64,000 bases of DNA from Acholeplasmataceae bacterium (GTDB taxonomy: Bacteria; Bacillota_I; Bacilli_A; Acholeplasmatales; Acholeplasmataceae), in contig OY775910.1 of NCBI GenBank assembly GCA_963675245.1, positions 96,001 through 160,000 on the forward strand, in the 5' to 3' direction. Position 1 is the first letter of the stretch. Each line of letters starts with the position of its first letter. The notes under the pieces were generated by a model. The model had not been told where the DNA came from, searched no databases, and worked only from the letters and a program-made list of their open reading frames with translations. A program made the position numbers and the translations under genes. This document shows, in pieces, positions 25,853 to 55,809 of the stretch.

Positions 25853-25928
25853 GCCCCCTTAGCTCAGCTGGCAGAGCAACTGACTCTTAATCAGTGGGTC
25901 TACGGTTCGATCCCGTAAGGGGGTACCA
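25853..25928 (+). tRNA. tRNA-Lys(CTT); serves as attB/attL
   Basis: 76 nt; acceptor GCCCCCT/AGGGGGT, anticodon arm ACTGA-CTCTTAA-TCAGT, GGTTCGATCC T-loop, encoded CCA. Confidence 0.95.
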
Positions 25929-26000
25929 AATTAAAGCAACGAATCCTTAGCAAAGCAAAACTCTCCTAAGAATTGCTCCATGACTATCAGTCACACATCT

Positions 26001-26029
26001 ATGATAAAACAAAACATTTGCTTTGTCAA
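26001..26029 (-). promoter_or_regulatory. Leftward promoter facing att (copy 1)
   Basis: TTGACA-N17-TATCAT on minus strand; conserved in modules 2-4. Confidence 0.7.
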
Positions 26030-26049
26030 TAAGAAAGGAGCATTTTAAA

Positions 26050-26262
26050 ATGCACAAGCTTAAGGAACTTCGATTAAAAGAGGGGTTATCACAAACCCAG
26101 GTAGCTAAGATTCTAGGTGTGGATCGCAGCGAAGTTTCCAATTATGAAAGAGGGACAAGAAGGCTTCATGAAGATCAAATAATTGAACTTGTTAAAGCTT
26201 TTGATACAACAGCCGATTATTTTTTAGGATTATTAGAACCCAAAAAGAAAGAGCAAAATTAA
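26050..26262 (+). CDS. XRE-family HTH repressor, module 1 (variant recognition helix)
   Basis: 70 aa from ATG after AAGGAG; LSQTQVAKILGVDRSEVSNYERG; bidirectional terminator overlapping the stop. Confidence 0.9.
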   Translation: MHKLKELRLKEGLSQTQVAKILGVDRSEVSNYERGTRRLHEDQIIELVKAFDTTADYFLGLLEPKKKEQN

Positions 26263-26282
26263 TTTGCTCTTTTTCTTTCTTG

Positions 26283-26951
26283 TTAACTAGTAGCAGTATT
26301 CAAATATATACCAACAGCTGAATAATAGCCAACATTAACTAACCCATCTTCTTCTTTTATTTTAAATGTTTGTGAACCATCCAAATGAGTTAACACTATC
26401 AAATTAACTCTAATTTCATTAAATGATCCATCGTTAATTTGTGTAATATCATGTTTGCTAATTTTAAAATAACAGAAATTATCAATTGAATCATTGAAAT
26501 CATATATAAAATAATAATCATTTATCCATTCGTCTTGAATTATTAATTGATTATTAATTTCAATTGTATTAGTATCAATAATAAAGTTCAATTCAATTGA
26601 TTCTGGATTTTCTTCATCTAAATCAACAAACTTACATTCTGTATAAGTCTCATGATTATAATAAGTTATTATTCTAAATTTATATTGAAATAAAATATCA
26701 TGTATATAAACATCATCAAAATCTGTTTTTTCTTGATGAATTACACCTGCGTACCAATCATCTGGAATACTTATAGTGTTATCATTGTGAATAAAGTAAC
26801 TACTATCCCAATTGAGTTCAATCTGATCATAAGTAGCATTAACTTCAACCCAATTAGAAATATTAAAAACTTCGTTCGGACTATGTTCAATACTACACCC
26901 CGTTAAAACAAGCAACAATGATACACAAAAAAATAAAATCGTTTTTTTCAT
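26283..26951 (-). CDS. Lipoprotein (cargo)
   Basis: Lipobox LTGC; AAGGAG SD. Confidence 0.75.
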   Translation of the reverse strand: MKKTILFFCVSLLLVLTGCSIEHSPNEVFNISNWVEVNATYDQIELNWDSSYFIHNDNTISIPDDWYAGVIHQEKTDFDDVYIHDILFQYKFRIITYYNHETYTECKFVDLDEENPESIELNFIIDTNTIEINNQLIIQDEWINDYYFIYDFNDSIDNFCYFKISKHDITQINDGSFNEIRVNLIVLTHLDGSQTFKIKEEDGLVNVGYYSAVGIYLNTATS

Positions 26952-27092
26952 TTTTTTAAATCTCCTTAATTATGTTTTGAGCAACTGAAAAACATTCAAA
27001 ATATAAAAAGGATTATCAAATTATTTCTAAAATAAAAATACCATGTTATCACCTACTATTTACAGTTTAATAATTACATGGTATAATATTCA

Positions 27093-27150
27093 CGTGCGCA
27101 TGAATATTTCATGTAATCTGGCACTATGTTCGAGCATAGTGTCTTTTTTT
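27093..27150 (+). ncRNA. Candidate ~60-nt small RNA in prophage cargo
   Basis: TTTACA-N17-TATAAT (27059-27087), hairpin CATGAA/TTCATG, terminator GGCACTATG/CATAGTGTC plus T-tract; no ORF. Confidence 0.45.
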
Positions 27151-27179
27151 ATTATATTTCTGAATGCAATTCAGTTACT

Positions 27180-27569
27180 TCAAATAAGTGAATAATTGTT
27201 AATATCAAATAAAAGAGCATTTTCATCTGTTATGTATTCACCTTCAACTTTAATGCCTTTATCACTAAATATATCAACATCAACAATAGAAGAAATTGTT
27301 TTAACTAAGTCTTTATAGTTCCATCTAACAGTAAACACATCTTTATTGCTTGTTTTGTCTGAAACAAATTTCTGTGCATTTTGATTATTTTCATCACATG
27401 TTTTAATAGCAAATTGTTTAGTATCATAATTGATGAAAATTTCAACAAAGCTAGGTGATTTTAATTTATGAATTGCTGCTTTGTTAAATGCGACACCATT
27501 CTTAGTTATTGACATCGTAGGAACACCAATAATTAAACTGTATCTATCAAAATTATCAAACAGTGACAT
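27180..27569 (-). CDS. Hypothetical protein (129 aa) with own promoter
   Basis: ORF with SD; TTGACA-N17-TATGAT at 27618..27590. Confidence 0.7.
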   Translation of the reverse strand: MSLFDNFDRYSLIIGVPTMSITKNGVAFNKAAIHKLKSPSFVEIFINYDTKQFAIKTCDENNQNAQKFVSDKTSNKDVFTVRWNYKDLVKTISSIVDVDIFSDKGIKVEGEYITDENALLFDINNYSLI

Positions 27570-27933
27570 TGTATCATCTCCCTACTAACATCATACCAGA
27601 TTTCGTTATTTTTGTCAACCGTTTGTATTCAATCATTTGTATCGTTATCGTTTTATACTTATTCTATTTATTATACTTTAGTTTTTTTCCGTTGTTCCTT
27701 TTACGTGTGAATAACATATAAAGATAAGACGGACTGTATTATTGCCCGTCTTATCTTTGGAAGGTGAATATTTGATTTATTTTTAGTGTTTCTATCTTGA
27801 ACAACTTATAGAACATAGATATAATCATGCTTAATTCTACTCTTACTAGATTCAGTTATTGGTTTTACTACCATAAAGTGGATATCTTATTTAAGATACT
27901 CTTACTCATTGTTTCTACTAAACTATACTAGAT

Positions 27934-29673
27934 CTAACCATCAATTTGTTTACCAATAATATTTTTCCAATAATATTCAGCTAGTTTTCTACCTCGTTCA
28001 TCAATTTTTTCTTCAATAAAACCACTTGGATAGTTAACAATTAATTTATTATTATGTTTATATAGAGATAGATTATAATACTCATATTTTTCAATTACAC
28101 CTATTCCACTAGGTATTCTTTCATTTATACTTTTTTCTAACAAAACTAAATTTCCTATAAAAGTAGTTTTTTGATTCTCATCATCTTCATTAATAATATG
28201 TTCTATAGATCCATCTGTGTGATTGTGATCTTTATCCGCATATGAATTTTCCAATTTATTTATGACATATTTTGCAAGAATGTTTGTACTCAATTTATTT
28301 TTAGAATACCTTAACTTTACAAAATTCTCAGAAAATTCTTCAAATGAAGGATAAATTTCGTCAAGTACTTTAGTCAGTTCATCAAGAATAGTTTGGATTT
28401 TAGTTTTTTCGCTAATTTCTCTAATTGTAATTGCATAACTAGAATATATTCCTTCTAGTCTGCTTGGCAAGTTTGAACACAAATTATTATAGACAAAATG
28501 AAAATTCTCGATATAATTTAGTACATGTTTTAATTGTCTATTTGTGATGTTGTATTTATTGTATTGATACATTAGTGCTAAGAGGATAACCCTAGATTGA
28601 ACAATATTCAAATATTCGCTTAAATTCTTGAGGTTTTGTACAAGATATTGTTTTTCCACTCTACTATCATAATCTGTCAAAATCGGTACTAAAATTTGAC
28701 TATACAATCTCGAGTTTTCAACTAATTCATTTAAAAATTCTTTTCTTTTAGAGTTATTTGTAGGTCCTTTTCTAAGAAATGAGTCGTACAATTTACTCTC
28801 GGTAACTTTTTGATATTTAGAGATCCAAAAATGTCTAAAAAATACTGAAAGAGAAATTCTTTTTCCTTTAGAATTTAAATTAGATATAGTTTCTTTCCAT
28901 TTGTTAACTGCAAAATCAGTTGGTTGAACATTATTTAGTTTTTCAAGTATATTATTTTTGATTAAATCAATTGCAGCTAATGCTTTTCCTTTTGCATTCA
29001 ATGTTTCAAAAAGAATATTTGCATATTCTTGTTCGGATGTCCATATTGCAATAATATAACATCTAATTAATTGATCTCTTACACATTTTAACATTGTAAC
29101 ATAATCTATATCAATATCTTTTTTTTGTTTAAAGATTTTTTTTAAATTTCTTTTTTTCAATTGTGAATCAAAATAATTATATGCAGACTTTATTCGATCT
29201 TCTTCTTCTGATTTTGGAGCGGTTTCTTCTCCTTCTCCTTGAATTAAATATTGAAAATACGGATTTGGTGTATCATTTTTCAAAATTGCAAATACATCAT
29301 CATTAATGTCTTTACCCATCACAAATTCCCAAATTTTATTTGCTAAAGCTCGCTCATTATTTTCAATAAATTTTTTCTTAAATATTGAAAGCATAATTGT
29401 AATTGTCGTCAATCGTTGTTGCCCATCAATAATATCAACTATATTTTCACTTCCTTTTAAATCTCCTACAAGTAAAATATTTCCTAAAAAATAATCATTT
29501 GGCACGAATGTGGATGACTGTTCATCATAAGTAATCTGATCTAAGATATCCTTATAAAATGTCTTAAGTTCATATCTTGCCCAAGAGTACTCTCTTTGAA
29601 ACCTTGGAACATTATATACTTTTTTATTTGATAACAGCACATTAATTTGAAATTTATCATATCCGAACTCCAT
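27934..29673 (-). CDS. DUF262-DUF1524 (GmrSD-like) nuclease, putative modification-dependent restriction
   Basis: VPRFQREYSW, IIDGQQRLTT, FETLNAKG, SIEHII..IGNLVLL..IN. Confidence 0.85.
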   Translation of the reverse strand: MEFGYDKFQINVLLSNKKVYNVPRFQREYSWARYELKTFYKDILDQITYDEQSSTFVPNDYFLGNILLVGDLKGSENIVDIIDGQQRLTTITIMLSIFKKKFIENNERALANKIWEFVMGKDINDDVFAILKNDTPNPYFQYLIQGEGEETAPKSEEEDRIKSAYNYFDSQLKKRNLKKIFKQKKDIDIDYVTMLKCVRDQLIRCYIIAIWTSEQEYANILFETLNAKGKALAAIDLIKNNILEKLNNVQPTDFAVNKWKETISNLNSKGKRISLSVFFRHFWISKYQKVTESKLYDSFLRKGPTNNSKRKEFLNELVENSRLYSQILVPILTDYDSRVEKQYLVQNLKNLSEYLNIVQSRVILLALMYQYNKYNITNRQLKHVLNYIENFHFVYNNLCSNLPSRLEGIYSSYAITIREISEKTKIQTILDELTKVLDEIYPSFEEFSENFVKLRYSKNKLSTNILAKYVINKLENSYADKDHNHTDGSIEHIINEDDENQKTTFIGNLVLLEKSINERIPSGIGVIEKYEYYNLSLYKHNNKLIVNYPSGFIEEKIDERGRKLAEYYWKNIIGKQIDG

Positions 29674-29685
29674 ATTATTTTACTC

Positions 29686-30981
29686 CTATTCTTCTATAAT
29701 TGAAAGTATCCACAAAATCCAACCACGTATTGAACTTGCTCTTCTATGATATGTTGAAGATACATCAGTTTTCATGCCTACATGATACAAATCATAGGAC
29801 ATCATTTTATCTTCAATTTCATTCGTTGTCATAGAATATCCTGTTTCAAAGTTTTCCTGTAAAACATCATGGAAAATTTTGTGTTCTAATATTCTATTAA
29901 CTAAAAAAAGTTGTCTCTCGATATAAGAACTTTTTAACATGGATTCACCTTCATCAGTTAATCTATAGTAGGTTATTCCATCAGATCTTTCTTTTTTCAT
30001 TAATCCAAGATATCTGCATGCATTTGTGTAATAATCAGATTGCCGAATATTAAATTCATACTCCGATGCAATAAATTCTTTGGTAAGATCTTCATTTTTT
30101 GCTAATTCACAGAGATTGATAACTTTTCTAAAATCATCAGCTTGTGGAAATGGAATTTCAGGTTCTTCAACAATAGTAACTGTATTTATAATATTTTGGA
30201 TTGTTTCAACATTAATCTGAATATCTTCATATGTATATTTTTTTTGTTTAATCAATTTTAAACTGTTGTAGTTGTTAGGATCTTCAAATTTATATTCATA
30301 AAGTGTAAATATCCCGTTTGAATAAACAAAATATACTATTTTAACTTCTTTAGAAACTTTGTCTTTCCATACTCTATAAGGAAAATATATTTGTCTTATT
30401 AGAAAATCATTAGATATGTGTTGTTTTGCTTCAACCAATGTTAAATATTTATCTCCTTCGTAAGCACCATCAATTTCTATTTGAGAATTAGCTACATCAA
30501 CTTTGCTTTCCTTCCCATCTATATCATTTATAATATTAAATGAAAACTTTCCACTACCCATTCTTCCTGAAACAGTGGGGAATATATTTTCATCTTCAAT
30601 AAAATCCTGTAACATTCCACTTATATATGAAGAGTTTAACGCTACAGTTTCACTAGTAATAACATCTTTATCTACGCTCTCTATATATGCTGGAAAATTG
30701 ATTTGTTCTATCTCATTACTTATCTCTTCAAAATCGAAAAACATTCTATGATTAGATAGAATGTATTCTCCCCTAGAAATTGGTAAGATGGAAATTTTGT
30801 GTTTTTTAAATATCTTCGGAAGATTAATGCTGTGATCGAATTTAGTAACTAATCTCGGTTCATAAACTTTTTTTATTTGTGAAGCTTTTATTATGAAATA
30901 TCCATTATTCTTAATTTCATCTAAGATATGATATTCTTCAAATAATTCTTCCCATACTACATCTGCTTTTTTCTTGCTCAT
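29686..30981 (-). CDS. Putative type II restriction endonuclease, partner of the Dam-like methylase
   Basis: QIEIDGAYE..LVEAK PD-(D/E)xK-like motif, C-terminal winged-helix-like region; translationally coupled to the methylase. Confidence 0.6.
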   Translation of the reverse strand: MSKKKADVVWEELFEEYHILDEIKNNGYFIIKASQIKKVYEPRLVTKFDHSINLPKIFKKHKISILPISRGEYILSNHRMFFDFEEISNEIEQINFPAYIESVDKDVITSETVALNSSYISGMLQDFIEDENIFPTVSGRMGSGKFSFNIINDIDGKESKVDVANSQIEIDGAYEGDKYLTLVEAKQHISNDFLIRQIYFPYRVWKDKVSKEVKIVYFVYSNGIFTLYEYKFEDPNNYNSLKLIKQKKYTYEDIQINVETIQNIINTVTIVEEPEIPFPQADDFRKVINLCELAKNEDLTKEFIASEYEFNIRQSDYYTNACRYLGLMKKERSDGITYYRLTDEGESMLKSSYIERQLFLVNRILEHKIFHDVLQENFETGYSMTTNEIEDKMMSYDLYHVGMKTDVSSTYHRRASSIRGWILWILSIIEE

Positions 30982-31814
30982 TAATAATTTCTTACAATTA
31001 CTTCGTTGATTGGTCCTCTCTCATTCCCCTTTGAATTAACATTTCTTCTAGCTGTGACAATATCTATGTTAAACTCACCATATAAATCAACAATAAAATC
31101 TGACGCGGAATTAGATAACATAAATTTAATTCCTTTATTGTCTAATTCAACGCACAATTCATATAATCTTTTTTGTGCGTTTCTGTCAAATCCCATTTCG
31201 TTATATCCTGTAAAATTTGAATTTGAGGATATCGGGTCATAAGGTGGATCAAAATAAACAAAGTCTCCTTTCTTAGCATTTTTTACTGAATTTTCAAAAT
31301 CAGTATTTAACATTTCAATTTGATTTTCGTTAAAATATGTACATACAGCTTTAATTACTGGTTCATTTACAATATTAGGTCTTTTATAACCACCATATGG
31401 TGTATTAAATTCTCCAGAACTATTTACTCGGTAAAGACCGTTGTAGCAAGTTTTATTCAGGTAAATTAGTCGTGATGCCTTTTCAACTTCAGATAATTTA
31501 CTAAATATTATTTTATTTCTATCTTTATCTCGTAATGCATAAAAATAATCTGATTCATTTTTATGTTTTTTTAGTGACTCTAAAAGTTCCGAAACATTTT
31601 CTTTAACTACTTTATAAGTTCCAATTAAATCCTCATTAATATCATTAATAACCGCTTTTTTTGGCTGAAGATAAAATAATACAGCACCTCCACCAAAAAA
31701 TGGTTCATAATATGTGTTGAATTTAGATTTAGGTAATCTCTTTTCTATTTCAGAAATCAATTGCCTTTTTCCCCCAACCCATTTAACGATTGGCATCACT
31801 AATTTGTTTTTCAT
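30981..31814 (-). CDS. DNA adenine methyltransferase, Dam/DpnM (D12) class
   Basis: KWVGGKRQL, YYEPFFGGGAV, NGLYRVNSSGEFNTPYG, FVYFDPPY, FMLSNS. Confidence 0.93.
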   Translation of the reverse strand: MKNKLVMPIVKWVGGKRQLISEIEKRLPKSKFNTYYEPFFGGGAVLFYLQPKKAVINDINEDLIGTYKVVKENVSELLESLKKHKNESDYFYALRDKDRNKIIFSKLSEVEKASRLIYLNKTCYNGLYRVNSSGEFNTPYGGYKRPNIVNEPVIKAVCTYFNENQIEMLNTDFENSVKNAKKGDFVYFDPPYDPISSNSNFTGYNEMGFDRNAQKRLYELCVELDNKGIKFMLSNSASDFIVDLYGEFNIDIVTARRNVNSKGNERGPINEVIVRNY

Positions 31815-31950
31815 TTTATCAACCCTCTATTTGTTTAATTATATCATTTTGCGAGCTAATAATGAACCAAAACAATGCACAAAATTTAAATGAAATAATG
31901 TTGTGTTTAGTTCATTATATCATATATTTAATGCTTAAATTTAACACTCA

Positions 31951-32370
31951 TTAATTGTGTTTAGTTTTAAACATAAAATTATAGAAAGTAATTATTGAAT
32001 ACCCTCTTGCATCCTTTTCAATATCTTGATCGAAATAACCATGAATATTTTTTTTCTGTGGATATATATAGTTATCAAATTCATGTTTCCATCTATCAAC
32101 AAAAATATTATAATTTTTCACTTCAATTGTTTTTTGATATTGATAAATATGTCGTAATTCATGAAATATTGTTCTTAGTAATTGATCAATTTCAGCTGAT
32201 TCATACCAAGATTCTTTAAATACGATTTTGTAACATTTTAATATAACCGCTGCTATTATCTTTTTATTACTAAAAATAGAGCCTTGGATAATCTCTATAT
32301 CTGGTGGCTCTATGTTTAAATCTCTACACCCATAAAGCAAAGCTTCGTAAACAAATTCATCTCTTGTCAT
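31951..32370 (-). CDS. HExxH zinc-metallopeptidase-like protein
   Basis: IFHELRHIYQ and downstream QDIEKDAR. Confidence 0.65.
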   Translation of the reverse strand: MTRDEFVYEALLYGCRDLNIEPPDIEIIQGSIFSNKKIIAAVILKCYKIVFKESWYESAEIDQLLRTIFHELRHIYQYQKTIEVKNYNIFVDRWKHEFDNYIYPQKKNIHGYFDQDIEKDARGYSIITFYNFMFKTKHN

Positions 32371-32406: not shown

Positions 32407-33279
32407 TTATGCGGGTAGATTTATATACTTGTCGTAATCTCTTTTTACCTTTCTAAAACTAACATCAATATAGTTCCTAGTCATCTCGATTGACTCATGA
32501 CCAAGTAATACTTGAATACTTGCTAAGCTTGCACCATTTTCATGAAGTTTAGTTGCGAATGTTCTTCTAAACATATGCACATGTAGCTTATCAAATCCAA
32601 GCTTTTCATTCATTCTTCTGAGAAATAGCTTGATATCGTTGTAATTCATTGGTCTATCCTTCAACTGATTATAGAAGAGATATTCCGATTTTTCTTTATT
32701 GATTTCAATTAATTTTTGAACTTTAGTTGCTGAAAGCTTTGTAAATAAGACAAATCGTTCCTTTTTGTTCTTTGTGACTTCCAACAGAATATTTCTTACA
32801 TCCATATCAACGTTCTTGATCTTAATGTTCAATAACTCGTTGATTCTGCATCCAGTATCTAGAAGCATATAAATGACAGTCTTATATGTAAACGAGTTTG
32901 TAGAAAAATTCATTTTGCTGATATACGTACCAATTTCCATCAATTCTGTTTCTGTTAAAATCGGATAATGTCTTTTAACTACTCTAAGTTTCTGCATGTC
33001 TTCCAAATATTGATTGCGAATCCTAAAATGTCTCATAATGCGTTTAAATAGTCCTATATTGTGGTTTATAGAGATATTCTTACAACTTGTTTCATCCTTA
33101 TAATAAATGACCATTTCATCTAGTTTATCTTCTGTTAACTGATTTGTATCAGTTACTTCAAGATATTTAAAACATCGTTCGAGACTTGCGACACACCTAA
33201 TTTCATACAAATGCGTTGCTGGAATCTTGTAAACATTTGAATACTTCATATAATCCTTAAACATTTTTTCTAGTTTCAT
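32407..33279 (-). CDS. Tyrosine recombinase / integrase
   Basis: DTGCRINE, TKNKKER, HMFRRTFAT, LLGH, TRNY catalytic residues. Confidence 0.95.
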   Translation of the reverse strand: MKLEKMFKDYMKYSNVYKIPATHLYEIRCVASLERCFKYLEVTDTNQLTEDKLDEMVIYYKDETSCKNISINHNIGLFKRIMRHFRIRNQYLEDMQKLRVVKRHYPILTETELMEIGTYISKMNFSTNSFTYKTVIYMLLDTGCRINELLNIKIKNVDMDVRNILLEVTKNKKERFVLFTKLSATKVQKLIEINKEKSEYLFYNQLKDRPMNYNDIKLFLRRMNEKLGFDKLHVHMFRRTFATKLHENGASLASIQVLLGHESIEMTRNYIDVSFRKVKRDYDKYINLPA

Positions 33280-33300: not shown

Positions 33301-33516
33301 TTATAAATTGATAACGAATGATCTAACCAAAATGAATAAGATGATCATCATTAAAAGCACTATGAATCCAAGCGGTGTTAGAGACTCTCTAACGCCTTCT
33401 TTTGCATTTCTGATAGCACCAGTTAACCTCGGTACCATCCCAAACAAGAAAATCAATAAACCAACATTTAGAATTGTTTCCCAATTTTCAACGATAAAGC
33501 CAAAGAAGTCAAACAT
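33301..33516 (-). CDS. Small two-TM protein (candidate virion protein)
   Basis: 71 aa, two hydrophobic helices; coupled to the 748-aa gene. Confidence 0.6.
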   Translation of the reverse strand: MFDFFGFIVENWETILNVGLLIFLFGMVPRLTGAIRNAKEGVRESLTPLGFIVLLMMIILFILVRSFVINL

Positions 33517-35762: not shown

Positions 35763-35763
35763 C

Positions 35764-36459: not shown

Positions 36460-36470
36460 AGAATCACCCC

Positions 36471-37979: not shown

Positions 37980-37994
37980 AAGATGCTCCTTTTT

Positions 37995-44170: not shown

Positions 44171-44199
44171 ATTCTTTGTTCCCCTATTATTATTCTTTT

Positions 44200-46682: not shown

Positions 46683-46683
46683 C

Positions 46684-47815: not shown

Positions 47816-47861
47816 ACTCTTAATCAGTGGGTCTACGGTTCGATCCCGTAAGGGGGTACCA
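47816..47861 (+). repeat. att copy 2
   Basis: 46-bp exact match to the tRNA 3' half starting ACTCTTAA. Confidence 0.95.
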
Positions 47862-47982
47862 AAATACAATAACGAGACTTAAGCAAAGCATTACTCCGCG
47901 AAGAGTTGCTCCGTGACATTTCATCACACATCTATGATAAAACAAAACATTTGCTTTGTCAATAAGAAAGGAGCATTTTAAA

Positions 47983-48195
47983 ATGCACAAGCTAAAAAAG
48001 ATTCGTACTGATAAGGGGTTATCACAAACCCAGGTTGCTAAAATTCTAGGTGTTGATAGAAGCTCAATATCTAACTATGAGAGAGGGACAAGGAAACTTG
48101 ACCAAGATCAAATAGTTGCATTAGTCAAAGCTTTAAATACAACAGCAGATTACTTCCTAGGATTGTCAGAAACCAATGAAAAAGGACAGAAATAA
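47983..48195 (+). CDS. XRE-family HTH repressor, module 3
   Basis: Protein identical to the module 4 copy. Confidence 0.9.
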   Translation: MHKLKKIRTDKGLSQTQVAKILGVDRSSISNYERGTRKLDQDQIVALVKALNTTADYFLGLSETNEKGQK

Positions 48196-48271
48196 AAATT
48201 TTGTCCTTTTTTAACTGAACGTTTTAACAAAACAATTTCTAAGCTGCTCTTTTTTAGGTAATATTGAAAAA

Positions 48272-48433
48272 TTATTTATTTTCTAACTTTAAATAACCAG
48301 CTAAAAACATTATAACAAATATAACTAACAATACCCTTGCACCAACTTCAGTTCTATAAATTGCTACAGTCATTACAATTATTCCTATGATACCAATTAT
48401 TGTAAGAGCGATATTTATTTTTTTTGAATTCAT
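48272..48433 (-). CDS. 53-aa two-TM peptide (not in ORF track), possible immunity partner
   Basis: MNSKKINIALTIIGIIGIIVMTVAIYRTEVGARVLLVIFVIMFLAGYLKLENK; GAGGTG SD right after the upstream stop. Confidence 0.6.
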   Translation of the reverse strand: MNSKKINIALTIIGIIGIIVMTVAIYRTEVGARVLLVIFVIMFLAGYLKLENK

Positions 48434-48442
48434 AATCACCTC

Positions 48443-49477
48443 TTAATAATCTGATAAATCATTGAAACCAATTGTATAACCTATTGAATTGAATTCTGGT
48501 ACTGGTTCTAAACTAATTCCGCTATAAGTTACATATGGATAAATCGGTGTCAATGTAATTCTTCCTGGATCTATTTTCCATCCGGAAAACTGGTGAACAT
48601 AAGTTCCTAAAATATCAATTGAATTAATTTCACTAGTTGATGGAATAAGTACTGTTTCAAACTCAAACTGCAATTCTGATACAATTTGTCCTTGTGTAAA
48701 CATTAAACCGAAATCAGAATATGTTATAAAAAATGATTCAGGAACTTCGTAAGGTACCATAATTGTTCGTTCGTTTGGAGTGTACTCATAAATATCATCA
48801 TCAGAACCAACAACAACTTCTTCTCTATCTTCATCAATTGATACAAACATTTCTCCATTTACTACAGTGTAATTAAACAGATGATATTGCATTTTCGAAT
48901 ATATTTTAGCGTGTTCTTCAGAACCAGCAGGGTAGTTTCCATTAATATCCGGTAAAACTTCTTCATTATTATTATAGTAGACAAACTTTGGCTTAAATAA
49001 TTCAGTATATGCTATATTTAGCAGGTCAATTAAACCATCGTCTTGCACTGAATCCCATTCAACTTTCATCCAATAATATAGTTCACCATATTGACCATAT
49101 GTTGGGAAATAAGTTGCTTGAATACTAATTGAAAAAAAACTGTTATTATTATATCCATCCTTTGATATCATCGGTGGAACATCTCCACCACCACCTGAAT
49201 CTCCACCATCATCAAATTCAAATCCAGCCCCTAAAACACTATAAGAAATAATATCATTTAATTCTTTCTCTTTATCGTCCTTATATTTCTTTAATTTCTT
49301 TTGATATTCTTCCTTTGAAAGATTGTGAATTGTGCTTACAGTCTTTCCATCGACTTCATTATTAATTTTTTGATAGTATTCTTTAACTTCATAGGTATAA
49401 CTTTCAATCGCACCAAATGAATTAATAGATAATCCCATAAAAATAAACACTAATAGAAATAATATAATCTTTTTCAT
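48443..49477 (-). CDS. Secreted protein (cargo)
   Basis: Signal peptide MKKIILFLLVFIFMGLSINSFG from ATG 49477 (GGAGG SD); Gly-rich linker. Confidence 0.7.
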   Translation of the reverse strand: MKKIILFLLVFIFMGLSINSFGAIESYTYEVKEYYQKINNEVDGKTVSTIHNLSKEEYQKKLKKYKDDKEKELNDIISYSVLGAGFEFDDGGDSGGGGDVPPMISKDGYNNNSFFSISIQATYFPTYGQYGELYYWMKVEWDSVQDDGLIDLLNIAYTELFKPKFVYYNNNEEVLPDINGNYPAGSEEHAKIYSKMQYHLFNYTVVNGEMFVSIDEDREEVVVGSDDDIYEYTPNERTIMVPYEVPESFFITYSDFGLMFTQGQIVSELQFEFETVLIPSTSEINSIDILGTYVHQFSGWKIDPGRITLTPIYPYVTYSGISLEPVPEFNSIGYTIGFNDLSDY

Positions 49478-49543
49478 TGCCCCTCCCAAGTTTTTTTTCA
49501 TTTTATCATATATTAACAGATATATCAATTGAAGTCTTTTTTT

Positions 49544-50761
49544 CTATATCTTACTAATAGGATATGCAATAACATCTTTTGTTAGATACATTGGATTTTC
49601 TATCATCGATAATAGATATTGTCCACCAATCACTATATCACCTTTATTCTTGATTGTATCAAAATTCTTTATCATATGTAATGATGGATGTGAAGTTTTC
49701 TTCACTTCAACTAAATATAACTTGCCATTTTGCTCTAGTACTATATCCACTTCATTTTGATCCCTATCTCTATAGAACATGAGATTTGGTTCAATACCTT
49801 TATTACGGTATGATTTTATAATTTCAGAAATCGCATATGTTTGGAGCATGAATCCTGACATTGCGCCACTTTCTAATACTTCTGAAGTTTGCCACTTCAA
49901 CAAGAATGAAGCAAGTCCAGTGTCCATAAAATATAATGTCGGTGTTTTTACTGCTCTAGATAATAAATTGTTTGAATAAGGTTTAGCAATATATACAATT
50001 GAAGATGCTTCTAATACGCTTAACCAGCTCATTGCTGTTTTTAAATCGATGCCGACTTCACTTGCAATTGAAGCATAATTTAGTAATTGTCCAGTTCTAG
50101 CTGCAACTGCAACCATAAATACAGAAAAACGATTCAAGTCTCTAATATTGATGATTTCTCTTACGTCTCTTTCAATATATGTAGACACATATGAACGATA
50201 AAACAGTTGCCAATCCATCATTTTATTTTCATATAATTCTGGATATGATCCTCGATGAATGATTGACCATATATTACTATTAAACGACTTTCTTTGATTG
50301 CTGATATATGCTATATCTGGTACAAAAACATCTTGAAAAGATTCTGTATTTATTTCTCTAAGTGATAAACCGGAAAGTGATAAAATACCGACTCGACCAG
50401 CGAGTGATTCAGATACATGATGCATCAAAGAAAATGTTTGCGAACCAGTTAATATGATTTGTCCTTTTTTCTCACTTTGATCAGCTAATAATTTAAGATA
50501 AGGAAATATCTCTTTAACTTTTTGTACTTCATCTATGATGATAGGCAATGTATGTGTTTGAAAAAATAATGCTGGATCACGTTTTATTTGCTCTTGAATT
50601 AGCACATCATCTAGAGATACATATTGATGAGTGTTACCAAATATTTTTTTAATGATTGTTGTTTTACCAACTTGTCTTTGTCCAGTCACCAATATGATTT
50701 TGAACATTTCTGACATTTTAAGCAAAATATCTTCAGCATGTCGTTTTATATAGTTCATCAT
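49544..50761 (-). CDS. AAA_14 + DUF4143 ATPase
   Basis: GQRQVGKTT, IIDEVQ, LTGSQ, ESLAGR, GSYPE, YIERD, KTPTLYFMDTGL, EVD..VEVK; promoter TTGACA-N17-TAAAAT at 50820..50792. Confidence 0.9.
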   Translation of the reverse strand: MMNYIKRHAEDILLKMSEMFKIILVTGQRQVGKTTIIKKIFGNTHQYVSLDDVLIQEQIKRDPALFFQTHTLPIIIDEVQKVKEIFPYLKLLADQSEKKGQIILTGSQTFSLMHHVSESLAGRVGILSLSGLSLREINTESFQDVFVPDIAYISNQRKSFNSNIWSIIHRGSYPELYENKMMDWQLFYRSYVSTYIERDVREIINIRDLNRFSVFMVAVAARTGQLLNYASIASEVGIDLKTAMSWLSVLEASSIVYIAKPYSNNLLSRAVKTPTLYFMDTGLASFLLKWQTSEVLESGAMSGFMLQTYAISEIIKSYRNKGIEPNLMFYRDRDQNEVDIVLEQNGKLYLVEVKKTSHPSLHMIKNFDTIKNKGDIVIGGQYLLSMIENPMYLTKDVIAYPISKI

Positions 50762-50904
50762 TAACCTCCGTCTAATATGGAATTCAATTCCATTTTAGCC
50801 GTTACATTATGTTTTGTCAATTGTTTTCATTATTAATACCTATACAAACGGAGTTTTTCGTTATGTTTTACTGGAGTGATTTGGTATTATTATCAAACCT
50901 TGTA

Positions 50905-50950
50905 ACTCTTAATCAGTGGGTCTACGGTTCGATCCCGTAAGGGGGTACCA
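50905..50950 (+). repeat. att copy 3
   Basis: 46-bp exact match. Confidence 0.95.
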
Positions 50951-51070
50951 AATTACAATTAAATGGACTTAAGCAAAGCATACTCCGCAAGAACTGCTCC
51001 GCGACGATATGTCACTACATCTATGATAAAACAATAAAATTGCTTTGTCAATAAGAAAGGAGCATTTAAT

Positions 51071-51283
51071 ATGCACAAACTTAAGAAAATCCGTACTGAT
51101 AAGGGTTTATCACAAACCCAGGTTGCTAAGATTCTAGGTGTTGATAGAAGCTCAATATCTAACTATGAGAGAGGGACAAGGAAACTTGATCAAGATCAAA
51201 TAGTTGCATTAGTTAAAGCTTTAAATACAACAGCAGATTACTTCCTAGGACTATCAGAAACTAATGAAAAAGGACAAAAATGA
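51071..51283 (+). CDS. XRE-family HTH repressor, module 4
   Basis: 70 aa, same protein as 47983-48195 with synonymous changes. Confidence 0.9.
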   Translation: MHKLKKIRTDKGLSQTQVAKILGVDRSSISNYERGTRKLDQDQIVALVKALNTTADYFLGLSETNEKGQK

Positions 51284-51383
51284 AAATTTGTCCTTTTTTC
51301 TTGATTGTCATTTATAATCAAATAATACCAATTTAAATTAAAATGTTAAAAGTTGAATCACATTAAAAACTAAACACTAATAT

Positions 51384-52175
51384 TTAACTTATTGAATAAT
51401 CTTGATCAAGTGGATCAATCGTATAAAAAACCAATTGATTTCTCAAAATTTCAAAACGAGGATTCAGTATACGATTAGTCGAATCCCAAGAAACTTGAAC
51501 AGACACTGAGCCATATGGATTGTTCTCAAATGAAGTCGAAATTTCTACTAATTGGCTTTGTGTATACAGCTCCGAAATATGTATTCTGAATGATGATATA
51601 TTCGTTAAAAATTGACCGCTATCAAAACTTCGAGAAATTAAAAAATCTGAATCTCCAAACAACTCAATTTCATTTGTTTGAACATCTCTAAACGTCTGGC
51701 TTATAATTGTAAATAGAGAATCAAACATCAATATATCCCCTGTCTGATTAAGATCATTTTTTACATAGTTTACAATATCAATTAGATTATCTTCATTCAA
51801 TGTAGAACTGTTTGTAGTTATATTATCTTCATATTTATTAAGTTGCAAAGTTTGTCTATCAAATATGTATTGATATTTTTGATTGTTGTAATAGTCATAT
51901 AATGTCATATCATCAGTCATCAAATATGCAAAAGATCTTTCTTCTTTAACTAAGATATAGTGTTCATTATTCGTTGTCATCGTATAATATACCCAAGAAG
52001 AATTCGACGATAAATAAACACTATAGATGTCTCCATCAATTTCCACAATATTCGAAATATTTTCGACCGTTAAATTTTGAAAAAAATCTATAAATTCCTT
52101 TTTATCAGATTGGTTGCATCCAAACGATGTTAAAAGTAAAAAGATTAATATCATCGATAATAAGATTTTTTTCAT
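51384..52175 (-). CDS. Lipoprotein (cargo)
   Basis: Lipobox SFGC; GGAGG SD. Confidence 0.75.
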   Translation of the reverse strand: MKKILLSMILIFLLLTSFGCNQSDKKEFIDFFQNLTVENISNIVEIDGDIYSVYLSSNSSWVYYTMTTNNEHYILVKEERSFAYLMTDDMTLYDYYNNQKYQYIFDRQTLQLNKYEDNITTNSSTLNEDNLIDIVNYVKNDLNQTGDILMFDSLFTIISQTFRDVQTNEIELFGDSDFLISRSFDSGQFLTNISSFRIHISELYTQSQLVEISTSFENNPYGSVSVQVSWDSTNRILNPRFEILRNQLVFYTIDPLDQDYSIS

Positions 52176-52201
52176 TTAATAACCTCCTTTTTGAATTGTG
52201 T

Positions 52202-53338
52202 TTATACTACTAGATTTTCAAATGGCGGTTTCCAAATTTCCCACCACTTAGCTCCTGTTGTTTTTTGGATGTTATATATACCATGTCTATATTGTGATTG
52301 TACAAAATAAAAAGATGGTGTCCCGGATTTTTTACTACCTATAACCCCTAAATTGTGATAATAATTTTCTGTCCAATGAGAAATAATATCATAATTTGTT
52401 TTGAATATCCACCAAGCATCTGATTGAGCGCTACCAATAATCATTGCATAATGTGCGGTTTCGACGACATCTAAACTATAATATAATCCAATTGCAGGAC
52501 CATTGTAATTTGGGCCAAAATAACCTTCAGAATTGACAAAATAGTCATCCGATAAATATCCATGAATTCCAGACACTATTTCACCTGGCCATATACCATA
52601 AAAAGTACTTACTAAATAGTCACGTCCAGCTGTAGTCCAATTCATTAATGAACGCATCGTATCCCGTTCAGTATTACTATTCATACTTTTTGTTAATCCA
52701 CTTTCGCCGGAAAACTGAAAAGTATACAAGATGTTCACTGCTGCTTGTGCACCACAATCCATGTATGCACCTTGAGTTCTAGTATAAATTTGATAACTAC
52801 CATAACTACCATTATCCATTCTTAAATCATCTGCAATTGAATATGTTACTTTAAAATTAGTTAGTGCATTCGTATTTGTGCTAGTAAGCTGAATATAAAT
52901 ATTATCATAAAACCAACTTTGTCCATCTATTTGATCTAAATAAGGTGCACCGAATGAATTAGGAATAAATCTTTCATTGTCTTTAATATAATAATGATTC
53001 CCTATCAAGTAATTTGTATCTCTAGCTACATAAAAAGGTAAATTCCCCTCTGTTTTTATTTCATAAATATTTAAGTCTAGTCCTACAGTTAAGTATCCCT
53101 GGTCAAACTGAATCAGAAACGCCTTCAATTCATCATGTTCATCGTATAAGTCATAATAATCAACATATGTATTTACATCCCATACTTGACCAAACTCTTT
53201 ATAATACTCCTCCCTTAAAATTGGAATATTCTCATTAATAAAATTTACAAGTTCAGCTTCGTTATCAATATTCACTATACCACTAAAACCGATTGTTGTG
53301 AATAGAGATAAAATAACAATTAAAAATTTGTTCAACAT
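52202..53338 (-). CDS. Secreted protein with C39-like/papain-fold Cys-His peptidase domain
   Basis: Signal peptide from ATG 53338; DCGAQAAVNILY ... AHYAMIIG. Confidence 0.55.
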   Translation of the reverse strand: MLNKFLIVILSLFTTIGFSGIVNIDNEAELVNFINENIPILREEYYKEFGQVWDVNTYVDYYDLYDEHDELKAFLIQFDQGYLTVGLDLNIYEIKTEGNLPFYVARDTNYLIGNHYYIKDNERFIPNSFGAPYLDQIDGQSWFYDNIYIQLTSTNTNALTNFKVTYSIADDLRMDNGSYGSYQIYTRTQGAYMDCGAQAAVNILYTFQFSGESGLTKSMNSNTERDTMRSLMNWTTAGRDYLVSTFYGIWPGEIVSGIHGYLSDDYFVNSEGYFGPNYNGPAIGLYYSLDVVETAHYAMIIGSAQSDAWWIFKTNYDIISHWTENYYHNLGVIGSKKSGTPSFYFVQSQYRHGIYNIQKTTGAKWWEIWKPPFENLVV

Positions 53339-53498
53339 TTTTCTTCTCCTTTTTCTATTATTCAAATACAAAAAAGCTTACAACGTAAGCACCCCCAAGA
53401 TGTCATGTATCTCTATAATGTAATTATAACATCAGTATGTAGTTATAAAACACAACATATATGTCAATAATTTAATGCAATTTAAACAAATGAAATAC

Positions 53499-53547
53499 CT
53501 GACTCTTAATCAGTGGGTCTACGGTTCGATCCCGTAAGGGGGTACCA
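53499..53547 (+). repeat. att copy 4
   Basis: 49-bp exact match starting CTGACTCTTAA; followed by terminator-like AAGACTTCA/TGAAGTTTT. Confidence 0.95.
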
Positions 53548-53657
53548 TTTGATAATTAAAAGACTTCATTTTGAAGTTTTTTTTGTTTCACAAATCTCTT
53601 AGTATACCTATTTAGATCAATTCACTTGCTTTGCTAATAAGAAAGGAGCATTTTAAA

Positions 53658-53866
53658 ATGCACAGGCTAAAGAAAATTCGTAGTGATAAGGGTTTATCAC
53701 AAACCCAGGTAGCTAAGATTCTAGGTGTAGATCGCTTTCATTTCCAACTATGAACGATGAAATAGAAAGCTTAATTAAGATCAAATCGTTGAATTCGTGA
53801 AAGCTTTGAACACATCTACTGATTACTTCTTGGGATTGTTGTAAACCGAAGAAAAAGGACAATATT
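53658..53866 (+). pseudogene. XRE repressor pseudogene, module 5
   Basis: MHRLKKIRSDKGLSQTQVAKILGVDR then a frameshift and several stops; homology continues to GATTACTTCTTGGGATTG and the shared terminator. Confidence 0.9.
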
Positions 53867-53954
53867 TCTCATTTTTGTCCTTTTTCTTAATCATGCATTT
53901 CTCTAATGTGTCCTTTTTTCTTGATTTTTTATAACATGAATAATATTAATTTAT

Positions 53955-54380
53955 TTACTCGTTATCATAGAACTTAACATTCCAGATTCTGAAGTTAATC
54001 GTATTAGAAGAACTGTCTTCTTTTATTGCATCAAATGATTCATTAAAGACAATTCTAATGGTTGAGTTTTCACTTAGATTTGTCGTAAGAATTGTTTCAA
54101 TTTCATTAATATAAACTTGATATGAAGCATCATCTTTAATATTATTTAAACAAACAAAATCTATTGTTGAATATGTGCTTTGTATGTAATCCATGTCATG
54201 AATGTTCAAAGTGAACAAATAAACGACAGAATCCGTATTATGCATAGCATTTTCAAATGTTAAATCGTAATTGCCTTGTTCATATGTAGATCCTAATCCA
54301 TAGACTTCCATCGGTGTTTCGCATGCTGTAAATAACAGCGACACTACTAGTATAATTGATATTATAGCTAATTTTCTCAT
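53955..54380 (-). CDS. Lipoprotein (cargo)
   Basis: Lipobox FTAC. Confidence 0.7.
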   Translation of the reverse strand: MRKLAIISIILVVSLLFTACETPMEVYGLGSTYEQGNYDLTFENAMHNTDSVVYLFTLNIHDMDYIQSTYSTIDFVCLNNIKDDASYQVYINEIETILTTNLSENSTIRIVFNESFDAIKEDSSSNTINFRIWNVKFYDNE

Positions 54381-54394
54381 ATTCTATCACCTTT

Positions 54395-55621
54395 CTAATA
54401 ATACATGAAAGCAGCAAAACCAATATATACATTCAAATCCATATATCTCATATAAGTAACCCATCCATCAGACAGTCTTATTAAATAAACATAATCGTAT
54501 TCAGTCCACCATAATACTTGTCTAGCTTTTCTGTAAGTTTTGTATCCAAATACTGCCATTGTATGAGCACCCTATGTATTTGTTGAAGTACTCCACATAA
54601 GTGGCTTATCATCATCGAGATATTGTTTATAGTTAAATGCTCCCCATAAAACATCCTCTCTGAAATTTATATCATAACCATACTCATCCATCGTCATTTC
54701 AATAATTCCAGAAGATTGACCAATTGTGAAAGATTCTACTCTGCCATATTGATCGTAAGTATTTGTTCTTGCACTGATATATAATTCAGGAAAATCAGTT
54801 AAATCCGAATTAAGTTGATACTCTGAACTTTCTATCATTTTCTCATAGTGTACATCCCATTCATGATAAATAGGATTATATGTTACACGGTCTGCATAAT
54901 CTGGTAGATTTGAATATGCTGATTTAGTTGAAAAATAGTTCATTACGTTAAAAGGTGCAACTAAACCACAATTACCTTCTGAATATCGTAGATTATCTTC
55001 ATAACGCCAGTATACACTTAAATCAAACATATCATGACTAGTTGAATAGCTTAGATAATGATATTGATATAATGAGTAACCAGATCCATATCTATCAGCA
55101 ACGTATGTAGCTGTAGATACAATTCCACCTGCGCCATCAAGTTCTTGTCCCTCATAAGGATCACTTAAAAGTGTGTTATCAAAATCATTTTCATTGCTGT
55201 TTATTGGTACTAGTTGACCTTCAATCAGAAAGTGATAACCAGACAAAGGTAGATAGTAAATTTGTACATCAAATTCAGTTAGATTCTCTAATGGTGAAGG
55301 TCCTGTGATTTCATAATCATAAATCGCTGCCTCATCCCCAATTAGTAAGTAGCCATTGTCATCATTAAAATCCAACAAAACACCTTCATTTTTTTCATTC
55401 ATATCATCAATAACAATTTGATAGCTTTTATCTACTGAAGTAAGCGAATCATTGAAGCCTAATTCAACAAACAACTCTTTAACAGTATCTATATGAGATT
55501 CAATATATTCTGCTGTCTCATACGATGAATCAACATTGCATGGAATTTTTGAATCTTGAGAAGCAATTCCACCCCAAAGCGAAAAACTAGCTAAAATCGC
55601 AATTAGAATTTTGCTATAAAT
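54395..55621 (-). pseudogene. Secreted C39-like peptidase pseudogene
   Basis: NCGLVAPFNVMNY; in-frame TAG at 54572-54574 then GAHTMAVFGY...LSDGW continues to the stop at 54395; SD is followed by ATT rather than ATG at 55621. Confidence 0.7.
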
Positions 55622-55761
55622 AAACGCCCCCTTTATTATTTTTTTATTATGATTACCCCATCGTGTTTTCGATTTAATATTACTTCTTTTAATTTCAAAT
55701 GTCAAATACACTTTATAATTCCTAAATTGTTAATATAACGTAAATAAAATTGAGAAACTAT

Positions 55762-55809
55762 TGACTCTTAATCAGTGGGTCTATGGTTCGATCCCGTAAG
55801 GGAGTACCA
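55762..55809 (+). repeat. att copy 5 (degenerate)
   Basis: 48 bp with two substitutions (CTATGG for CTACGG; GGAGT for GGGGT). Confidence 0.9.

Follow-up and report, generated by a model that had tools for sequence, protein, structure and literature searches.

A probable accretion array of integrase-less cassettes behind a filamentous-type prophage at a tRNA-Lys gene in an Acholeplasmataceae genome

Mobile elements are known to pile up at single integration sites in several bacterial groups. In Streptococcus, integrase-less elements bounded by attL and attR, known as cis-mobilizable elements (CIMEs), are reported in tandem with an integrase-bearing integrative and conjugative element (ICE) or integrative and mobilizable element (IME) at the 3' end of tRNA genes; the review that describes them names tRNA-Lys CTT as an accretion hotspot, and composites can excise together, which gives cis-mobilization and the capture of genes (PMC5704250). 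In the CTXphi/RS1/TLC arrays of Vibrio cholerae, a filamentous prophage is flanked by repressor-bearing satellites that lack morphogenesis genes and sit at the phage's own attachment site, and VGJphi forms site-specific cointegrates with CTXphi or RS1 that are packaged as hybrid phages (PMC3545932). In Vibrio, inoviruses of the int type combine an integrase (Int) and a repressor with a hypervariable slot in which defence genes abound (PMC12715192). Successive integrations at one tRNA push older elements inward in the tycheposon islands of Prochlorococcus (bioRxiv 10.1101/2020.12.28.424599), and among the 3919 islands of the Islander survey, 2083 belong to an anticodon-centred attachment (att) class, 125 tandems comprise at least two islands and 4 comprise at least three (PMC4383910). 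Here, we describe an array at a tRNA-Lys(CTT) gene in a window of 64,000 nt, the whole stretch of DNA analysed, from an Acholeplasmataceae bacterium (assembly GCA_963675245.1, contig OY775910.1, positions 96,001 to 160,000). Five modules that face the same way are delimited there by an intact tRNA gene and by direct repeats, five in number, of its 3' 46 nt; an inovirus-like prophage stands next to the tRNA, and four small cassettes stand behind it. All positions given below are those of the window.

With a probability of roughly 55%, the locus is a tandem accretion array of a filamentous-type phage and CIME- or satellite-like cassettes, which would be moved by the phage integrase in trans or as cointegrates. 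An earlier, sequence-only reading of this DNA had offered minimal satellites moved by a helper integrase as its alternative, which is the one that fits best, and had added that no description of such an architecture was known to it. On the latter point the literature says otherwise: tandem accretion, including at tRNA-Lys CTT (PMC5704250), filamentous satellite arrays (PMC3545932) and the displacement of older elements deeper into an island (bioRxiv 10.1101/2020.12.28.424599) are in print. Each ingredient, be it accretion arrays with CIMEs, repressor-bearing filamentous satellites, int-type inoviruses with cargo slots or the polar growth of tRNA islands, has already appeared in the sources cited; as a case of mobile elements piling up in a known way at one integration site, the array stands out by its length and its tidiness. 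A literature search that was not exhaustive brought up no account of integrase-less cassettes with repressor and cargo lined up at a tRNA behind a filamentous prophage that bears an integrase.

The array starts at the intact tRNA-Lys(CTT) gene on the plus strand (25853..25928), the sole tRNA that ARAGORN called in the window and the single Rfam match over 24000-62000 (64 bits). Core 1 (25883-25928, plus strand) is made up of its 3' 46 nt, which extend from the anticodon loop as far as CCA, and the other copies begin at 43188, 47816, 50905, 53502 and 55764. Cores 2-5 are exact. The array ends distally with core 6 (55764..55809, plus strand), which carries 2 mismatches; after it comes a tRNA trailer and terminator of native type, a hairpin with a T-run that also stands after the last core in a related genome, G007. 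The core-to-core spacings are 17305, 4628, 3089, 2597 and 2262 nt, which gives 17.3 kb for module 1 and 4.6, 3.1, 2.6 and 2.3 kb for modules 2-5. The sequence-only reading had put the cassettes at 4.6, 3.0, 2.5 and 2.2 kb, slightly short for the last three. Its general anatomy was confirmed, namely a tRNA with five direct copies of its 3' half, five left-end units, and integrase, Rep and morphogenesis genes in the tRNA-proximal module alone. Its statement that every left-end unit has a gene of the XRE family and a terminator stood in part, the XRE gene being present in units 1-4 and a pseudogene in module 5, and the terminator being called only in units 1, 2 and 4. The genome (G000) is one closed contig of 1,626,300 bases, and the left-end unit was found in it at the array locus only. 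When the 46-nt core was searched as a pattern with up to 3 mismatches in the genomes of the order, it matched in 58 of 307, and six copies occurred in G000 alone, all others having at most two.

The left-end unit that follows each of cores 1-5 spans ~390 nt, is 74-95% alike between copies and consists of a short spacer, a small plus-strand XRE/HTH_3 gene and a terminator-like hairpin. Unit 1 (25929..26280, plus strand), the putative immunity and att region of module 1, holds the XRE gene at 26050-26262 and a two-way terminator-like hairpin at 26246-26274; two promoters stand back to back, one leftward (26029>26001) and one rightward (from 26023), and an inverted repeat in the spacer is a candidate operator. 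The leftward promoter, TTGACA-17-TATCAT, is predicted in units 1-4, where it overlaps the XRE promoter. The terminator hairpin was called by the scan in the three units named above, and similar inverted repeats are visible by alignment in units 3 and 5. A 35-nt XRE pattern matched five times, with 0 matches expected from 100 shuffles, and an exact 29-nt pattern occurred at 0 loci in metagenome_contigs and 0 in viral_contigs. In 15 of the 15 spacers compared, regardless of the tRNA used, the XRE ribosome site is closely preceded by the -35 element of the leftward promoter, and the unit is therefore taken to be the phage family's own immunity region. The non-coding spacer is 79-88% alike among units 1-4 and is more conserved than the synonymous sites of the adjoining XRE gene (synonymous divergence, dS, of 0.35-1.1).

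Once the phage is circular, transcription from the leftward promoter would cross attP and enter an operon that encodes a 175-aa protein, the ATPase and Rep; integration would separate promoter and operon. In the array, the leftward promoter of unit 2 precedes the module 1 operon just as that of unit 1 would in the circle. As for unit 1 in the integrated state, its leftward promoter points antisense through tRNA-Lys into a minus-strand host operon that starts with a Nudix-like gene (25242-25787). Inside the ATPase gene, a 31-nt stretch on the minus strand (41612-41642) resembles the operator/promoter part found in units 2 and 4, with 87% identity (E 5e-4), and may be a second repressor site within the phage or a chance match.

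The XRE genes carry the evidence for independent arrival. Those of modules 3 and 4 encode identical proteins and differ by 13 synonymous and 0 non-synonymous changes (dS 0.35); those of modules 2 and 3 differ with a dS of 0.36 and a ratio of non-synonymous to synonymous divergence (dN/dS) of 0.11; and the module 1 gene, whose protein is 71-74% identical to those of modules 2-4, differs from the cassette genes with a dS of 0.8-1.1 and a dN/dS of 0.16-0.21. This pattern excludes local duplication, gene conversion and collapsed strain variants. Judged by it, the repressor is kept by purifying selection and the modules are separate acquisitions, and together with the unrelated cargo it bears out what the sequence-only reading had proposed, separate acquisition by att-site recombination at the tRNA. 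Decay is concentrated distally: in module 5, a frameshift after ~26 codons and several stops beyond it interrupt the XRE gene, the main cargo gene is split and no leftward promoter was called, and core 6 is the only mismatched core. This distribution fits an order in which the older modules lie distally, entry takes place at the intact tRNA and module 5 is the oldest, in agreement with the earlier view that residents are pushed outwards by newcomers.

The cassettes share one layout, a core and left-end unit on the plus strand followed by cargo genes that all lie on the minus strand, and their cargo sets are mutually unrelated. Module 2 (43188..47815) comprises core 2 (43188-43233), an XRE gene (43355-43567) with its leftward promoter (43334>43306), and genes for a 183-aa protein, a 98-aa protein, an HNH nuclease, a 318-aa protein and a full-length sigma-70 factor (46684-47586), three of these cargo proteins being without a family; the predicted cargo promoter (47661>47634) agrees with the consensus at 12 of 12 positions. 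Module 3 (47816..50904) has core 3, an XRE gene at 47983-48195 and a leftward promoter at 47962>47934, and encodes a 55-aa membrane protein, a 361-aa secreted protein and an AAA_14/DUF4143 ATPase (49544-50761) that matches the PADLOC candidate PDC-S01 (6e-102); its cargo also has a predicted promoter of its own (11/12 matches). In module 4 (50905..53501), core 4, an XRE gene (51071-51283) and the leftward promoter (51051>51023) are followed by genes for a 263-aa lipoprotein and a 389-aa secreted protein. Module 5 (53502..55763) consists of core 5, a degraded unit with the XRE pseudogene (~53658-53870), a 141-aa lipoprotein gene and the main gene, split into 379 and 54 aa (54395-55711); in the genome G012 (contig 22), a single open reading frame (ORF) of 414 aa covers both pieces (37% and 61% identity). 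The lipoproteins and secreted proteins of modules 4 and 5 gave no match in Pfam, PHROGs or PADLOC. The archive of defence, toxin and immunity genes that the sequence-only reading saw here is accordingly clear as to defence in module 1 and at candidate level in modules 2 and 3, and does not extend to modules 4 and 5.

Remnants of phage genes were searched for by tblastn with all module 1 core proteins and all ORFs of the relatives fetched (E <= 0.01); no remnant of Int, Rep, ATPase or structural genes was found in 43185-60600, and no remnant of an XRE unit inside the cassettes or in the right flank. Cores 2, 3 and 5 each have a terminator-like hairpin immediately to their left. In layout, the cassettes correspond to the XRE-plus-cargo end of a full-length phage, as module 1 and the relatives G132 and G022 carry cargo in the slot between XRE and Int; the earlier statement that modules 2-5 equal the left part of module 1 thus holds for layout and not for cargo sequence. 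As in filamentous-phage satellites, morphogenesis genes are absent, the site is the helper's attachment site and the repressor is of helper type; replication genes of their own were not found in the cassettes, which have no Rep homologue. Satellites of the phage-inducible chromosomal island type were also considered and rejected, since their own integrase, replication module and packaging-redirection genes are all absent from modules 2-5.

Module 1 (25929-43187) is the only module of the array with integrase, Rep and morphogenesis-type genes. Its inovirus-like core (33301..42554, minus strand) has a gene order kept in relatives; read from the right end, the minus-strand genes encode the 175-aa protein, a 439-aa ATPase, a 61-aa protein, Rep_trans, a 173-aa membrane protein, an 85-aa protein, proteins of 502, 231 and 748 aa, a 71-aa protein, the integrase and then the cargo. 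The 61- and 71-aa proteins are small and hydrophobic, and the 748-, 231- and 502-aa proteins each have a signal peptide and a C-terminal anchor. The 85-aa coat-like protein (38507-38764, minus strand) has a signal peptide, one transmembrane segment and a basic tail; by inspection of the sequences it is a candidate small major coat protein, and the three anchored proteins are candidate minor coat proteins, none of which matches a family. The P-loop ATPase (40652-41971, minus strand) has an N-terminal membrane anchor; it matched nothing in the phage collection, and Pfam returned only weak AAA_18 matches for 4 of 10 members of its family. The Rep protein (39280-40443, minus strand) is a rolling-circle initiator with Rep_trans (8.5e-33) and Rol_Rep_N domains, and it matched 13 records of the phage collection at 23-28% identity, including small circular genomes filed under Inoviridae. 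One match, Dulem virus 68, has a ZOT-annotated gene immediately upstream of its replication gene, which is the place that the ATPase gene has here. Pfam detected no VirB4-type or other secretion-system family in module 1. The make-up fits an inovirus-like (filamentous-type) prophage, a call that is not airtight. An ICE as the autonomous partner of the cassettes was rejected, module 1 having no secretion-system families and looking like a filamentous phage.

The integrase of module 1 (32407..33279, minus strand; 290 aa; Pfam Phage_integrase, 2.1e-38) is the only tyrosine integrase of the array. It aligns end to end with the NCBIfam XerA, XerC, XerD and integron-integrase models, in all cases below their cutoffs, and is therefore a simple recombinase of two domains that leaves no space for an additional arm-binding domain. 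The putative attachment site of module 1 is the 46-nt 3' part of the tRNA. The non-coding right (P) arm (42555..43187), with a minus-strand terminator-like hairpin (43124>43101), is not conserved among three full-length phages; given that P arms vary even there, the unconserved right ends of the cassettes are uninformative on deletion versus integration. Between XRE and Int, 6.1 kb of minus-strand cargo (26283..32370; Pfam, PADLOC and a hydrophobicity scan) encode a 222-aa lipoprotein, a 129-aa protein, a 139-aa HExxH protein and three enzymes, all on the minus strand: a GmrSD-type enzyme (27934-29673), a type II restriction enzyme (29686-30981) and a D12 adenine methyltransferase (30981-31814). 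No att-like site beyond chance 8-10-mers lies between this cargo and the integrase gene. A second Xer-like integrase, 35% identical to that of module 1, is encoded outside the window (G000:C1:993367-994203); as the genome has no second copy of the ATPase, it is attributed to another kind of element.

Homologues of the ATPase occur in 15 of 306 other genomes of the order, at 24-49% identity, and stretches were fetched from 9 of these 15. Five of the nine were partial or too distant; in the other four (G009-C15, G063, G302 and G294), and likewise in G022, the order tRNA, XRE and then, on the opposite strand, Int, structural genes, Rep, ATPase and the 175-aa protein gene is complete. The related elements use different tRNAs (Cys, Gly, Gln and Lys) and occur as single prophages without a downstream unit. 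Between XRE and Int, the four have gaps of ~10, 32, 355 and 823 nt; the gap reaches 2.8 kb in G022, where it holds two genes, and 6.1 kb in module 1, and on account of this range it is regarded as a variable cargo slot. In G132, which belongs to another genus and has its element at tRNA-Lys, the XRE is 63-68% identical to those of the window and a GmrSD-type protein in the same slot is 53% identical to that of module 1. Genes borne by phages and by cassettes are intermingled within the tRNA-Lys group of the XRE tree (support 99/95), and the gene of the G120 cassette is sister to that of the G132 phage from the same genus (support 99/98); the cassettes are therefore not an old separate lineage.

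The comparison across related genomes that the sequence-only reading had called for showed the six-core array in G000 alone, and single integrase-less modules between tRNA-Lys and one copy of the core in four other species. These are cassettes of 4.4 kb in G007 (three genes; XRE 74-77% identical to those of modules 2-4) and 4.7 kb in G120 (XRE and two genes), and modules of 3.3 kb in G140 and 1.1 kb in G139, each with one gene. Remnants of Int or core genes were found in none of the eight integrase-less modules, four in G000 (tblastn) and four elsewhere (blastp of ORFs of at least 60-70 aa), and the best integrase match in G007 is only 25% identical. G009, of the same genus as the array genome, has an empty tRNA-Lys site, with a homologue of the window gene at 60583-61227 standing 144 nt after the tRNA.

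One cassette links two species. G003 has a 12.8-kb element at tRNA-Lys (L049, G003:C1:188000-207000) with a distant XRE (42-45%), five cargo genes and an integrase broken in two. The distal 2 kb of this element are an internally deleted copy of the G007 cassette, 92-96% identical and fused to the rest with neither a core nor an XRE unit separating them. Host flanks are only 70% identical between the two genomes, and the homology ends at the distal core, beyond which lie the native trailer in G007 and unrelated DNA in G003. A core-bounded cassette has therefore been shared between the species after its formation.

Relatives ~85-95% alike occur in environmental sequence. In runs X5 and X6, they show an XRE unit with module 4 cargo (X6 record 22 and X5 record 18) or module 5 cargo (X5 record 17) directly behind it. 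Three genomes, G119, G131 and G075, also have the gene pair of module 4, each in a stretch without a copy of the tRNA-Lys core. The identities of the pair are 32% and 65% in G119:C4 (L112), 32% and a fragment in G131:C35 (L113), and 26% and 37% in G075:C8 (L115), and the G131 pair lies ~1.7 kb from a cluster of tRNA-Gly/Pro/Arg/Glu genes. Against viral_contigs, four cargo proteins found no relatives.

To the right of the array, between core 6 and the homologue of the gene that directly follows the tRNA in G009, 55810-60582 contains three small genes for lipoproteins or secreted proteins (188, 126 and 178 aa), a GNAT gene and an IS110 transposase gene. In the assembly of sequencing run X1, the IS110 contig has a depth of 126, against ~24 for its neighbours. 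There is a weak match (32% over 93 aa, E 0.002) between the 126-aa protein and one encoded by the G022 phage, and a search of the stretch for remnants of a core or XRE found none. The stretch may represent older, eroded cassette material.

It could be that strain variants were strung together or that one unit was amplified in place; repeats of 46-440 nt can mislead assemblers, and the contigs of the X1 short-read assembly do break at every unit. They break only there, giving separate contigs for module 1 (17126 nt, depth 32, range 32-33), module 2 (4376 nt, depth 26), module 3 (2800 nt, depth 22), module 4 (2308 nt, depth 18.6) and module 5 with its flank (5355 nt, depth 24.4), these depths not being copy numbers. 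All modules thus lie at similar X1 depth (18.6-32). Pieces of modules 2, 3 and 4 and of the flank recur at 100% identity in run X4, a second, low-depth sample with the same organism label. With a closed genome, different cargo in every module and XRE divergence far beyond that of strain variants or a recent duplication, the probability of an artefact or in-place duplication is close to negligible, and mis-assembly, which the sequence-only reading had named as what would overturn it, is not supported.

How such an array could be built may be pictured as follows. The phage of module 1 would bring its own Xer-like integrase, and its attP would be the 46-nt tRNA part adjoining the immunity region; modules 2-5 would be non-autonomous cassettes made of the att and immunity region with an unrelated cargo operon. 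Each would have come in separately, as a core carried by a circle recombined with the one in the intact tRNA, and the earlier modules would thereby have been pushed away from the tRNA. As P arms are unconserved among the three full-length phages and the integrase has no arm-binding domain, it probably needs little beyond the core, in which case any pair of cores can recombine and cassettes could move either in trans or with the phage as cointegrates. The phage could then pick up or leave behind neighbouring cassettes, and the length-flexible filamentous virion could package the cointegrates. Such transfer would explain solitary cassettes in genomes without a close integrase. The sequence-only reading had pictured a phage that deposits its repressor and cargo and leaves; this would happen through an internal core of a composite and not by loss of the core genes from a single phage. 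Resident cassettes would go on expressing a phage-family repressor, which probably confers superinfection immunity, along with their cargo.

Several observations weigh against this interpretation. Among the assembled contigs of the sequencing runs, there is no circle, excision product or cointegrate, and the phage-plus-cassette composite was seen in no other genome. One X4 contig does run from the right end of module 3 across the core into that module's left end (50902>47814, depth 4.4, with 50 nt common to the two sides); this may be a circle of module 3, a tandem copy or a graph artefact across the 50-nt repeat, and we count it as none of these. The cassettes contain no recognizable replication origin or packaging signal, so that their transfer between cells is unexplained unless they travel as cointegrates. 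Their layout is that of a cargo-bearing phage minus Int and core, as in-place loss would also leave. The modules of G140 and G139 have no XRE ORF of at least 60 aa. The claim that arrays are built in this way rests on one genome, the six-core array being unique among the 307. The filamentous nature of the phage is itself tempered by the ATPase, which has no significant pI/Zot match; a profile search of PDB sequences gave 0 hits at E up to 10, and Foldseek found nothing in BFVD or PDB at E <= 0.001. In a VIA search of 48,161 chains with its predicted model (mean pLDDT 69), the top match was the N-terminal domain of Neisseria Zot (2r2a_B; Z 8.3, root mean square deviation 4.7, 168 residues aligned), in effect tied with FtsK/TcpA-type ATPases (Z 7.9-8.0), such Z values being near the usual background.

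Many of the same data can be read as classical CIME decay, in which each cassette is an integrated cargo-bearing phage that lost its integrase, core and right arm in place and kept the repressor, the cargo and both cores. Decay followed by accretion is the usual route in the review of such elements (PMC5704250). The layout obtained by taking Int and core from module 1, G132 or G022 is that of a cassette, full-length phages do hold cargo in the XRE/Int slot, as with the GmrSD-type protein of G132, the XREs of cassettes and phages interleave, and G003 shows real decay at the hotspot, with its broken integrase, internal deletions and lost junction. Yet this only clearly decaying element is messy, and all eight integrase-less modules are free of Int and core remnants. 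Module 1 offers no att-like site between cargo and integrase at which a regular loss could act. The right junction of the G007/G003 cassette is common to two species, which argues for one formation followed by movement. Full-length phages with cassette cargo between XRE and integrase, for which the sequence-only reading had suggested searching, were not found, none of four cargo markers lying inside such a phage in 172 family genomes or in IMG/VR, which is weak evidence as sampling is thin. The regular, in-place loss of the core alone that the sequence-only reading favoured was not supported, and in-place decay more broadly seems to us unlikely, if still a serious contender. A more ambitious version of the mobile-cassette interpretation would make the array a working platform serviced by the phage, whose integrase shuffles self-regulated cassettes in an integron-like manner; the phage would ferry them between species as cointegrates within its length-flexible virion, an adjoining cassette would give the prophage a promoter and perhaps an origin in cis, allowing expression or copying without excision in the way that RS1 serves CTXphi, and the stacked repressors would provide standing immunity. 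We regard this as rather unlikely. The anticodon loop at the start of the core may resemble the nick sites of rolling-circle replication; the use of tRNAs with other anticodon loops by related elements speaks against this idea.

An origin in the unit is central to another possibility, that the modules are replicative satellites like RS1. The unit would then hold an origin and a packaging signal for the helper's Rep and coat, the modules would be copied as single-stranded DNA circles and packaged, and the downstream unit would give the prophage a promoter, and possibly an origin, without excision. Production of CTXphi is reported to need CTX-CTX or CTX-RS1 arrays (PMC3545932), the unit 2 promoter is suitably placed before the module 1 operon, and the spacer is better conserved than the synonymous sites next to it. 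The promoters and operator already explain this conservation, however, and neither an origin nor a packaging signal was found; RS1 has replication genes and these cassettes have none; terminator-like hairpins stand just left of cores 2, 3 and 5; and related prophages stand single, without a downstream unit. Such replicative satellites are thus improbable. It is also conceivable that module 1 is no phage at all, the whole being a strict IME/CIME array around a small integrative plasmid-like or mobilizable element with a Rep_trans/MobT-type relaxase and an FtsK/TcpA-like coupling ATPase. The Rep protein does match the NCBIfam MobT relaxase model, weakly (65 bits, cutoff 600), structural matches of the ATPase include the TcpA coupling protein and EssC/FtsK-type ATPases (Z 6.2-8.0), and a significant pI/Zot sequence match is lacking. 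Such an element would not account for the 85-aa coat-like protein, the three C-terminally anchored secreted proteins and the several tiny hydrophobic ones, and no secretion-system family of VirB4 or other type was found. The Rep domains are those of rolling-circle initiators, Rep relatives include Inoviridae-filed genomes with a ZOT gene directly upstream of rep, and the top structural match of the ATPase is the Zot domain. We consider a mobilizable element very unlikely.

If the accretion of phage and cassettes is the right interpretation, the logic known from conjugative elements and from CTXphi/RS1 in Vibrio would extend to a filamentous phage that bears an integrase and sits at a tRNA of a small genome with low GC, with non-autonomous partners that can be stripped to an att core, a repressor/promoter unit and cargo. 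An integrase is a requirement for Islander candidates, so that a run of integrase-less modules such as this one escapes it, and such modules may be under-counted by island finders with this demand (PMC4383910). Were the cassettes mobile, they would provide a route for defence genes and surface proteins between species via a chronic, non-lytic phage, and the stacked repressors would be a simple host-side record of, and shield against, the phage family. With its one integrase, its four cassettes that differ in age and its six sites that are identical or nearly so, the locus is also a compact test bed for core-only tyrosine recombination.

An integron is a fixed platform with intI, attI and the promoter Pc, and its promoterless cassettes are bounded by attC sites. 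The array resembles it in being a polar series of recombinase-less cassettes with one site each, a simple Xer/IntI-like recombinase and entry at one end. It differs in that the site is the 3' part of a tRNA instead of a folded attC, the cassettes have a repressor and promoters of their own, the integrase sits on a mobile phage and not on a fixed platform, and there is no attI/Pc platform. An integron proper was rejected on these grounds, the promoters of modules 2 and 3 being near consensus and the integrase, encoded inside the prophage, falling below the integron-integrase cutoffs.

Tandem islands of the tycheposon and Islander kind share with the array the partial tRNA copies between elements and the degenerate remnants, and the elements in them, as described, carry their own integrases (bioRxiv 10.1101/2020.12.28.424599; PMC4383910), unlike modules 2-5. 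Int-type inoviruses of Vibrio have a counterpart in the XRE/Int slot of module 1, with its GmrSD-type enzyme and restriction-modification pair; the account drawn on here describes arrays for dif-type elements and mentions no tRNA runs of integrase-less repressor-plus-cargo cassettes (PMC12715192). The CTXphi/RS1 arrays match in having satellites without morphogenesis genes, with a phage-type repressor and at the phage attachment site. They are described as using the host XerCD at dif, whereas here a phage-encoded Xer-like integrase would act at a tRNA, and RS1 carries rstA and rstB, whereas these cassettes lack replication genes and are mostly cargo (PMC3545932). Set beside the ICE/CIME tandems as reviewed (PMC5704250), the array differs in its integrase donor, which is filamentous-phage-like and not conjugative, and in its cassettes, which are very small (2.3-4.6 kb), stand four in a row, keep the donor's repressor and promoter and are free of gene remnants. 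As for the derivation of a CIME from an autonomous relative, the cassettes have the att and immunity region in common with full-length phages and their XREs interleave with those of phages; no intermediate form was seen, and the cassettes may derive from such phages. The likeness to ICE/CIME accretion otherwise extends to the main features of the locus: six direct cores derived from a tRNA, cassettes without integration or transfer genes, and what appear to be successive site-specific integrations (PMC5704250).

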